A stretch of DNA of 64,000 nt, taken from assembly GCA_000004695.1 (NCBI GenBank), contig CM000155.2, positions 64,001 to 128,000 on the forward strand, given 5' to 3'. The DNA comes from Dictyostelium discoideum (lineage: Eukaryota). The stretch's first letter is position 1; each line of letters begins with the position of its first letter. The position numbers were made by a program, and so were the translations under genes. Below are positions 29,960 through 33,507 of the stretch, in pieces. A model generated the notes under the pieces. That model searched no databases, was not told the origin of the DNA, and was given only the letters and a program-made list of their open reading frames with translations.

Positions 29960-32900
29960 CTATACATTGTTTGTTGTTGTTGTTGTTGTTGTTGTTGTGG
30001 TTGTTGTTGTTGTGGTGGTAGTAGTGGTTGTATTATTACAAAAACTATTTGAAAAGAAGGAAGAACTATTATTATCAGAATTAAAAATTGATCTTGAAAA
30101 TGATTGGCTTCCAACCAATTTAGTTTGTATATAATCGATATAGTCACTAAGATAAGAGGAGATTTCTTCAGATTCAGTTGTTTGTAATACGATTCTACCC
30201 ATTTCATAATCACCAAAATCCAAAGTTAAACATTGTGTATCCTTATGATAAGCCCATCTTCTTAGATGAGTTAGGGGATATTCTACGAGGAATTTCTTTG
30301 TTTTTGCAGTCATAAACAATATACATTTTCTACTGAAACCCAATACCAATGGTTGATTGATTGGAATTTGTTGAGATCCACCAAAACCATTGCCACCAGT
30401 ATTAATTCCACTACCATTACCACCAATACCACTGCCACCACCACCACTTCCACCATTTCCACCAGTGATAATGCCATTACCATTGATACCATTGTTACTA
30501 TTACCACCATTGTTATTACTACTACTGCTGCTACTTCCATTAGTTTTATTTGGTAATAATTGACGAACACTAAAAAAGATAGCACCAAAAGTTTTCAAAG
30601 AACGACATAGTTGAACGTAACGATACTTTGCATAAACCTCTTTGATACCACGTAGATTTTGATGTTCTTTGTAAATTGACTTTTCAATCTTTTGAAAACT
30701 TAGACCCCACAATTCCAAACTGTTGGGTGGTAAAAAGAATTTCAAATCTTGAGACTTTAAAAAGCCAGGTTTATGGATGTTTGGATTGTGATCACCAAAG
30801 TTAATCTGAAATAGTGTTGCTGCCAATTGAATTGCTTCCTCTTTTGAACAAGTATAGGTATTTGATATGATAGCATCCTTAGATTGGAAAAACAAAAGAT
30901 TAAAATAAACTGGATCACTATTACAATCATCAGCTGCACCAATATCACTTGTATAGAATTTCTTTTTAAATAATAATTTACTATCTGGTGATATCGATTG
31001 TTCTGATAATGGTTGATATGGTTTTAACCAAATACCACCTAATGATGATGATGTTGATGTTGATGTCGATTGTTCATCATTTGAATTATTTAAAATATTT
31101 GAATTTGAATTTGAATTTGAATTATTACTTATACTACTATTTACAATATAACTGTTATAAAATACATTATTTACATTACTATTATTTAACCCATCAAAAA
31201 TACCACTATTATTAACTGATGATGATGATGATGATGAAGTTGAACTATTATTACTATTATTATTATTATTATTATTTTTATTATTTACTATTAATTGAAG
31301 AGAAAATTCTTCAGGATTTTTTATACCTAATTTTAAGCCAATTTCTTGAGTGATTTCAGAGACTGTTTTTTGTTCATCTACAACAAAACTTTTTACTTTT
31401 TTATCTGAAAACTTTACAACAATCTCTCTTTCTTTGGCTGGTGATGCTATTAATATAAAAAATAGAAATAATAAAAAAAAAATTAGTTTTAATATGAATT
31501 TAAATTAAAATAAAAAAATAAAAACTTACATTTTGAAAAAGATAAAATCATTTTTGAAGATAAGTCAGTTAAAACTTTTAAAACTTTTGTAACTTTTGTA
31601 TCTTTGTTTAATTCTTTATTAACCATTGAACCAGTGATTTGAGTTGATAATGGATTGATATAAAGTTTCTTTGGTTCAATGTAGAGTGCACATTTCTTTA
31701 TGACTAAACCATATTGATATTTCCAATCTTTATCTTTGGTATTTGATTTGGAAGAATCAAACTCCATTGAATCAGAGGAACAATTTGAACAAGTTGATAA
31801 TCTTTTTCTACCATTAGTCAATGAATTTCTACCACTAACAGAGAGATAATTTTGATCCCATTGTTTTTGAATCGATGGTGTTTCCCTAAGATTATGATGA
31901 ATATAAGACGAGAGTACATGTGAAATTGCCTCTGCTTCCATTGAAATGAATGTATCCTTTCTATCATTATATTCAATTGTAAATACATTATTCAATACAT
32001 GCCATTTTCTAATATTTGATAAACTATATAAACTAATTGTATTATTAGTCATTGGGTCAAGTGTTAGAACAGCCTCTGATGAAATACCAAATAATTGTTG
32101 ATGATTATGATGATTATGATTATTATTATTACCACTACTACTATTGCTACTACTACTACTACTACCATTACCACTACCACTACCATTACCACTACCACCA
32201 CTACTACTTAAATTATTATTAACAATACTAGTTTGTCTATTTGTTACTTTAAAAAAAGTATATCCATAAGTTTTTAAAGATTTTGCTAATTGAATATAAT
32301 TTAATTTTGCTTTTTGTTCAGACATACCAATTAAACGTTGATATTGAATTAGAATTTCCTTTAGGATATTCTTTTGGTTGATGAATTCCATCGGAAGGAA
32401 ATCTCTTTGTCTAATTTGATCAATCTCTTTTGAACCATGAACATAATCACCAAAACAAATTTGACATTGTAATGCAGCAAATAGAATTGATTCAGTGGGC
32501 GAGCATGGATGCGATGTATCGATGATTGCATCCAAACATTGACAGAATACAAAATGTAACATTTCGGCATCCATGCTGAAATCGATGATAATATCTTTGC
32601 AAAAGAAGAATTGTCGTTTCAATAGGAATATGGTATAGAGTGGATCGATTCCTTGTTCTGGTAATGTTAAATCGGCCGATAACCAAATTCCCCTACCATC
32701 ATCCTCCTCTTCACATTGTACTTTTAATGATAACTCCTCTGGATATTTCAATTGTAATTTCTTTGCCAATTCCATTGATATCTCTGACACTGTCTTACTC
32801 TCGTCGAAAACAAATGTCTTTATTGTCTCATCCAACATTGTCGATTGATGTAATGGATGTACTACTCTTTCCCATGGACCAAAGAATCGAATCTTTAACA

Positions 32901-33507
32901 CACTCTTACAGGTCTTAAACTCTAATGTCTCATTTGAATCAATTTCATAATATGCTAGTGTTTTATCCAATTGCAACCAACGTGCATTTCTAAATGATCC
33001 TGATTGTTGAAATAATCCATAATTTTCGATTGATCCCCATAAAATTTGTTTACTACTACTACTACTACTACTACTACCACAATTACTATTATTATTATTA
33101 TTAGTTGTTGTTGTTGTGGTGGTAATAATTGAACTATTATTATTTTGATTATTGTTATTTAAAGTTAATAATGATAATAAATTATTATTTGAAGAATTCT
33201 TTTGTTTTTCATTTTGTTCCATCTTTTCTTCATTAATAATTCTTTCATAAATTTGATGTATAATTTTATCGATAGTATTATAGATTGAGAATCTCATGGT
33301 GATCACTCTATTTTGTCTAACCAATTTAATCCTTATTGGTTTTGAAATCGTTTGTAGTGATAAATGATTTGGGGGTAATTTGTATACCATAAAATTTATT
33401 AATCTCTCTATCAATTGTGGTGGTATTTTTTGGAGTGCTTGGTTATTATATTCCATCCTCTCCATAATACTGATGAAACATAATTCAACCAATGATAATA
33501 CTGCCAT
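29960..33507 (-). CDS. frmA: Tandem FERM-domain protein (talin-like FERM x2; FrmA/FrmB-type), 1154 aa, 2 exons
   Basis: Model: complement(join(29960..31446,31530..33507)). The two minus-strand ORFs in the track are joined by an 83-nt intron (GTAAGT...TTAATAG) and the phase is conserved (T|CA = Ser). Exon 1 holds a ubiquitin-like fold plus the first FERM region (KLNYIQLAKSLKTYGYTFFKV ... LYSLSNIRKWHVLNNVFTIEY). Exon 2 holds a second ubiquitin-like/F1 segment (EREIVVKFSDKKVKSFVVDEQKTVSEITQEIGLKLGIKNPEEFSL). The second FERM follows (EEAIQLAATLFQINFGDHNPNIHKPGFL ... YAKYRYVQLCRSLKTFGAIFFSV ... CLTLDFGDYEMGRIVLQTTESEEI). The two-FERM layout and 1154-aa size are consistent with Dictyostelium FrmA. 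The frmA vs frmB assignment is from memory and is tentative. Confidence 0.8.

Follow-up and report, generated by a model that had tools for sequence, protein, structure and literature searches.

The Dictyostelium discoideum DNA analysed here, a 64-kb stretch that we refer to as the window (24.5% G+C), carries two listed open reading frames (ORFs) on its minus strand between positions 33507 and 29960, and the question raised by this locus is whether they represent two genes or two pieces of one gene, and what protein is made from them. The first, at 31489..33507, starts with ATG and encodes 672 residues ending in ...KCKFLFFYFNLNSY; the second, at 29960..30895, encodes 311 residues and begins, as the original prediction had pointed out and the ORF list confirms, at TTG and not at ATG. 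Our results indicate with high confidence that 33507..29960 (minus strand) is a single two-exon D. discoideum gene from which a U2-type GT-AG intron is removed, and that its product is a tandem talin-head-type FERM protein of 1154 residues belonging to the FrmA-C group, most probably FrmA. None of this is new, in that the gene model is correct, the intron is ordinary, the gene is already annotated in several genomes and the family has already been described; the main value of the result is one of quality control, showing that a prokaryote-style ORF track cuts a eukaryotic gene at its intron and creates a TTG start, and that the earlier reader's repair from the sequence alone was right.

Gene model and the intron at 31529..31447

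Exon 1 occupies 33507..31530 on the minus strand (1978 nucleotides, nt), opens at the ATG at 33507, which is directly preceded by an in-frame TAA, and supplies 659 whole codons and the first base of the next, codon 660; its extent is supported by sequence and frame, Pfam and alignment to the talin-1 head, and its N-terminus aligns with the N-termini of orthologues. The spliceosomal intron that follows (31529..31447, minus strand, 83 nt, phase 1) has a GTAAGT donor, a TTAATAG acceptor and a conserved position. Exon 2 (31446..29960, minus strand, 1487 nt) opens with CATCACC and contributes the last two bases of codon 660, a further 494 codons and a TAG stop at 29962..29960, the DNA across the junctions reading ...TCAAAAT/GTAAGTTTTTATTTTTTTATTTTAATTTAAATTCATATTAAAACTAATTTTTTTTTTATTATTTCTATTTTTTATATTAATAG/CATCACCAGCC.... 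Removal of the intron leaves 1978 + 1487 = 3465 nt, that is, 1154 codons and a stop with no internal stop. The original prediction had held that the two ORFs are one gene, that the C-terminal residues of the 672-residue ORF (...SFSKCKFLFFYFNLNSY) are translated intron, and that splicing at AAAT/GTAAGT...ATAG/CA keeps phase and gives 1155 codons, stop included. All three points are borne out: the spliced frame matches annotation and orthologues are collinear across the junction, the 83-nt segment runs GTAAGT...TTAATAG exactly as it had been quoted, and the frame arithmetic agrees.

Taken at face value, the raw ORF list would instead describe two independent genes, the first with its stop at the TAA within the 83 nt, the second with its start at the TTG at 30895, and that list is the one observation in favour of such an arrangement. 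Nuclear eukaryotic genes, however, do not start at TTG, and the second ORF has no in-frame ATG before codon 377 of exon 2. The exon 2 frame continues open upstream of the TTG through another 183 codons, as far as 31444, and in orthologues this stretch is conserved coding sequence, encoding F1 and the beginning of F2 in the second FERM module. At the other end, unspliced read-through of the intron meets a stop after 13 extra codons, which lie in 93% A+T sequence and are not conserved between species, and the annotations in three genomes each show one gene. We consider two genes to be extremely improbable, and the proposal was rejected because the conserved open frame and the single-gene annotations contradict it. 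The TTG (30893..30895, minus strand) is an internal Leu codon, and its designation as a start is an artefact of a bacterial-style ORF lister.

Independent support for the single-gene model comes from a second D. discoideum assembly, GCA_054883475.1, whose syntenic locus (L006) was reached by way of the neighbouring gene for amine oxidase DDB_G0291301. There, a gene on record at 16266..19813 (minus strand) spans 3548 nt and has a product of 1154 residues. The spliced length of 3465 nt falls short of that span by exactly 83 nt, which is what the annotation takes out. The gene span in the window is likewise 3548 nt, with a difference of 1 nt from the L006 gene. Orthologues are also on record in D. 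firmibasis (locus L007, 16374-20389; 4016 nt, 1315 residues) and in D. citrinum (locus L008, 16398-20164; 3767 nt, 1222 residues), and both carry an intron in the same codon, AAAAT/GTAAGT...AG/C(A/C)TCACCAG, of 68 nt and 98 nt, respectively. The three intron lengths (83, 68 and 98 nt) are all 2 mod 3, and splicing the D. firmibasis and D. citrinum loci according to our model returns 1315 and 1222 residues, equal to the lengths on record. The exon flanks (150 nt on each side) are 91-94% identical among the species, with the substitutions falling mostly at the third codon position (9/9 and 7/8 cases against D. citrinum, 16/17 in total), and the introns are ~56-61% identical (~56% in their interiors) with 15-37 gap columns. 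Thirteen more distant orthologues (38-61% identity), which include the Trinity transcript ORFs P0011 and P0013, run continuously across the junction.

The differences in length among the D. discoideum, D. citrinum and D. firmibasis proteins (1154, 1222 and 1315 residues) are due entirely to homopolymer N/S/T/G inserts at fixed positions, namely the F0 loop, both F2-F3 linkers, the F1 loop of the second module and the C-terminal tail, with D. firmibasis carrying a poly-Asn insert of ~190 residues; outside these inserts the three proteins are 89-91% identical. At the D. dimigraforme locus (L009, 13600-23541), a tblastn search found no Frm orthologue beside the amine oxidase gene, which could reflect a synteny break or an assembly or annotation problem. 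The genes on record at that locus are short and different.

The intron is 92.8% A+T, compared with 70-71% in the exons, and no other 83 nt of the gene reach so high a value. The hexamer GTAAGT is scarce, with just 6 copies on the minus strand across all 64 kb, so that chance would place ~0.008 copies in the 42 nt that separate the last conserved codon from the stop met on read-through. Among 141 GT-AG pairs that restore the frame, only 31529..31447 is 83 nt long and it is the sole pair that keeps every conserved residue at the spacing of the closest orthologues; its GTAAGT is also the only donor of its kind among them. Longer introns within this set of pairs were rejected, as all of them delete conserved residues. 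The neighbouring amine oxidase gene provides an internal control, with an 81-nt GTAAGT...TAG intron at 24593..24673. The 83-nt segment has the features of a Dictyostelium-type GT-AG intron: a GT donor and an AG acceptor, short length, A+T richness, restoration of the frame, and a conserved position in combination with a sequence that is not conserved.

A CAG lying 9 nt downstream of the TAG acceptor could also be used, wholly or in part, giving an intron of 92 nt (31529..31438) and a product of 1151 residues that lacks Ser-Pro-Ala. From the same GTAAGT donor this acceptor restores the frame as well, and CACCAG is conserved in all three species, though it is coding there. The L006 gene is nevertheless recorded with a product of 1154 and not 1151 residues, and the TAG is the first AG past the A+T-rich tract. 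Spacing speaks the same way: between SFSK and EREI the two closest orthologues have TSTVQ and TSPAI and the window protein has SSPAK, the same five residues, a distance that only the TAG acceptor gives, the CAG leaving two residues. We regard use of the CAG as very improbable; as a minor isoform it is possible, as is some intron retention. The TAG acceptor at 31447 is retained in the gene model below.

Domain architecture of the 1154-residue product

Pfam scans of the whole protein, and of each exon's translation separately, place one FERM module on each exon, with the intron five codons ahead of the first strand of the F1 lobe of module 2. In exon 1, a conserved N-terminal extension without a Pfam match (residues 1-57) precedes an F0 lobe that is split by an N/T/S-rich low-complexity insert into residues 58-94 and 160-198 (FERM_f0, PF16511, 48.6 bits, above the cut-off). 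It is followed by an F1 lobe at about residues 223-262, weakly matched by RA_2 (17.8 bits, below the cut-off) and aligning to talin F1, an F2 lobe at residues 312-419 (FERM_M, PF00373, 3e-27), an F3 lobe at about residues 467-542 (IRS-type PTB, PF02174, residues 467-537, 1e-7) and a conserved linker at about residues 590-659 that has no Pfam match. Exon 2 encodes a second F1 lobe at residues 668-716, ahead of a low-complexity loop, which scores 25.5 bits against RA_2 (cut-off 27) and 19.9 bits against FERM_N when the half-protein is scanned, and 40.2 bits against RA_2 when the whole protein is. Its F2 lobe lies at about residues 836-951 (FERM_M, PF00373, 5e-21) and its F3 lobe at about residues 1024-1108 (IRS-type PTB, PF02174, residues 1024-1099, 5e-15), and the protein ends 45 residues past the latter in a poly-Thr tail. 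The original prediction had described two ubiquitin-like plus FERM modules in tandem, and this stands to the extent that FERM_M and IRS/PTB matches are present in each half; a separate F0 lobe was detected by Pfam in module 1 only, with none ahead of module 2.

Identity between the two modules is ~35% in F2 and, across 38 residues of F1, 55%, and comparison of their sequences points to an old internal duplication that is common to all orthologues. For both modules the closest solved structures are the heads of talin-1 and talin-2, with E-values against the talin-1 head of 2e-44 (module 1) and 2e-46 (module 2). Residues R358 and W359 of talin bind integrin, and where talin F3 has the 'KRW' that contains them, module 1 has RKW and module 2 has RRW. 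DFGDY and QTTE are also kept in the F3 lobe of module 2, and the alignment of F3 to talin scores 26.7 bits for module 1 versus 52.6 bits for module 2, making module 1 the more divergent. In each F2 lobe the match to FERM_M is unbroken from position 7 to 112. The domain map supplies exact construct boundaries for tests of mechanism, and identifies the F3 of module 2 as the better conserved and the protein as one with no actin-binding part.

A match to the talin head raises the prospect that the locus encodes a talin paralogue (talin A or B) and not an Frm protein, the best solved-structure matches of both modules being exactly those heads. The matches to full-length talin structures are, however, confined to the head, and the 1154 residues are fully used by the N-terminal extension, two FERM modules, the linker and low-complexity inserts. 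Orthologues of ~900 residues share this rod-less layout, and downstream rod exons are contradicted both by conservation of the stop codon and by the recorded product lengths. In the whole protein, Pfam found no talin rod, vinculin-binding site, I/LWEQ, PH, MyTH4 or motor domain. Identity with talin A or B was rejected on the absence of a Pfam match to the talin rod, vinculin-binding sites or I/LWEQ, and we give it next to no chance. The original prediction had set a best hit to talin A/B against its Frm assignment; what was found is a talin-head match with neither rod nor I/LWEQ, leaving a tandem-FERM protein of the Frm type as the favoured identity.

The N-terminal extension (33337-33507, minus strand; residues 1-57) follows the pattern LVELCF.SI.E..EYN..A...LP..L.E.LI.FMV ahead of F0 and is found in all full-length orthologues. 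Within it, codon 45 (33373..33375, minus strand) is CCC (Pro) in the window and CAC (His) in the L006 assembly. The residue is His in D. firmibasis, in D. citrinum and in all remote orthologues examined, the corresponding H59 of orthologue P0001 being nearly invariant, and Pro45 may stem from an error in the reference, from a mutation in a laboratory strain or from a polymorphism.

Family identity and a proposed role at adhesion foci

The neighbouring ORF 24685..27135 falls in the cluster of the D. discoideum AX4 'Putative bifunctional amine oxidase DDB_G0291301' (Q54EW2), and this neighbour identifies the locus as one of D. discoideum. Three FERM proteins, FrmA-C, have been described in Dictyostelium (PMC9197732). 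Because it is a rod-less, motor-less tandem-FERM protein of D. discoideum, the product must, judging by its sequence, be one of these three. The name FrmA is favoured since that protein is called 'multi-FERM-domain-containing' in the title by Patel et al. (2008, J Cell Sci 121:1159; listed among the references of PMC9197732), a description that the tandem-FERM product matches, having two FERM modules and belonging to neither the talins nor the myosins of D. discoideum. Overall, we consider it probable that the gene is FrmA. FrmA is probably a protein of 1154 residues that lies at this locus and has a UniProt accession adjacent to Q54EW2.

The same two-exon gene could instead be FrmB or another Frm paralogue. 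The original prediction itself wrote of an 'FrmA/FrmB architecture', the review says only that FrmA-C exist (PMC9197732), and no retrieved record ties a name to this sequence; literature searches returned no usable sequence details and no DDB_G or UniProt identifiers for FrmA or FrmB. The 'multi-FERM' title for FrmA in the reference list of PMC9197732 nevertheless matches the tandem-FERM product, and we judge a paralogue other than FrmA to be rather unlikely. With respect to the original prediction, its assignment holds at the level of the Frm family (talin-head-like, rod-less, tandem FERM), and its choice between FrmA and FrmB is left at that level.

Exact look-ups in the protein collection of the 1154-residue model, the 1151-residue model, the 672-residue ORF and the His45 variant found none of them. 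That collection holds neighbouring D. discoideum AX4 products but returns no relative with more than 61% identity to the 1154-residue product. The close relatives of the protein are apparently missing from it, and such absences therefore say nothing about the gene model. The 1154-residue gene on record in L006 has no Pfam entry.

Published phenotypes frame the possible function of FrmA. Cells that are frmA-null show stronger adhesion, with foci of paxillin B and talin A that are mislocalised and long-lived, and frmB-null cells show reduced adhesion (PMC9197732; PMC11720917). Talin A binds SibA (PMC9197732), and recent work still gives the mechanism of FrmA as 'currently unclear' (PMC12505270). 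By analogy with the talin head, we propose that the PTB-like F3 lobe of each module may bind adhesion receptors such as SibA through NPxY-type motifs in their tails, and that the F2-F3 surfaces together with the F0/F1 ubiquitin-like lobes may engage acidic phospholipid, possibly with Rap1, at the membrane. The protein would then be a cytoplasmic component of ventral adhesion foci that regulates or competes with talin and promotes turnover of the foci while transmitting no force. A role as regulator or competitor is suggested because the protein has no rod and cannot link to actin, and competition with talin would fit the published frmA-null phenotype.

In a more speculative version of this proposal, which we consider doubtful, the protein would act as a rod-less, double-headed mimic of the talin head, whose two F3 lobes, each with the talin R/K-W signature, could occupy or bridge two NPxY-bearing Sib tails, displace talin A/B and drive disassembly of the foci, and Pro45 could be a laboratory-strain variant affecting the N-terminal extension.

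Several points count against the identification and mechanism favoured here. The proposed mechanism is derived from talin-head homology, and the F3 of module 1 may be too divergent to bind NPxY motifs. The AlphaFold2 model built for orthologue P0001 is poor (predicted local distance difference test, pLDDT, 53; predicted template modelling score, pTM, 0.31; from a 13-sequence alignment) and permits no structural conclusion beyond secondary structure. The evidence for the splice junction is comparative and drawn from annotation. Finally, no named D. discoideum Frm protein came from exact look-ups or from homology searches whose queries were the whole protein and a segment, free of low complexity, that spans F2 and F3 of module 2.

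Neighbouring genes and comparison with known systems

The neighbouring amine oxidase gene DDB_G0291301 (plus strand) was split by the ORF track in the same manner, its 81-nt intron joining the ORFs 24007..24618 and 24685..27138; the product on record, of 1080 residues, implies at least one further upstream exon. Between it and the tandem-FERM gene, a 304-residue ORF at 27358-28272 (minus strand) covers only part of the gene for serine hydroxymethyltransferase, recorded in L006 with a product of 456 residues, and a 92-nt poly(A) run (poly-T on the gene strand) lies at 28424-28515, just upstream of the serine hydroxymethyltransferase exon. Pfam assigned the other large ORFs of the window to an alpha-kinase with WD40 repeats of the myosin heavy-chain kinase type (821-4579, plus strand), a pyridine-nucleotide disulphide oxidoreductase (6728-8059, minus), CRM1/exportin-1 (38439-41087, minus), exosome RRP4 (48763-49905, plus), a ClpB-type AAA+ chaperone (52520-54838, plus) and a POPLD (POP1-like) protein (57395-58642, minus). 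Several of these six are clearly exon fragments of larger genes.

Among known systems, FrmA comes from the same organism, has multiple FERM domains of the talin-like type on one polypeptide and is very probably the same gene; the window allele has Pro45, compared with His in another D. discoideum assembly. The talin head (F0-F1-F2-F3; PDB 3IVF, 6VGU) shares with the window protein the F0 lobe (module 1 only), the F1 loop insertion, the IRS-type PTB F3 and the R/K-W dipeptide at the position of talin R358-W359. The window protein differs in having two heads in tandem, large homopolymer loop inserts and a divergent module 1 F3, and it is without the rod, vinculin-binding sites and I/LWEQ actin-binding domain of talin. 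Kindlins (the fermitin family; PDB 5XPZ), which are co-regulators of adhesion receptors and not actin linkers, are likewise rod-less talin-like FERM proteins with an F0, though the sequence match is weak (E ~3e-9); in contrast to them, the window protein carries no PH domain inserted in F2 and has two FERM modules instead of one. The MyTH4-FERM myosins, represented in Dictyostelium by myosin VII, which has a role in adhesion (PMC9197732), also have two FERM domains per polypeptide, whereas the window protein has no motor, MyTH4 or SH3 domain and its FERM modules stand directly in tandem and are of the talin type.

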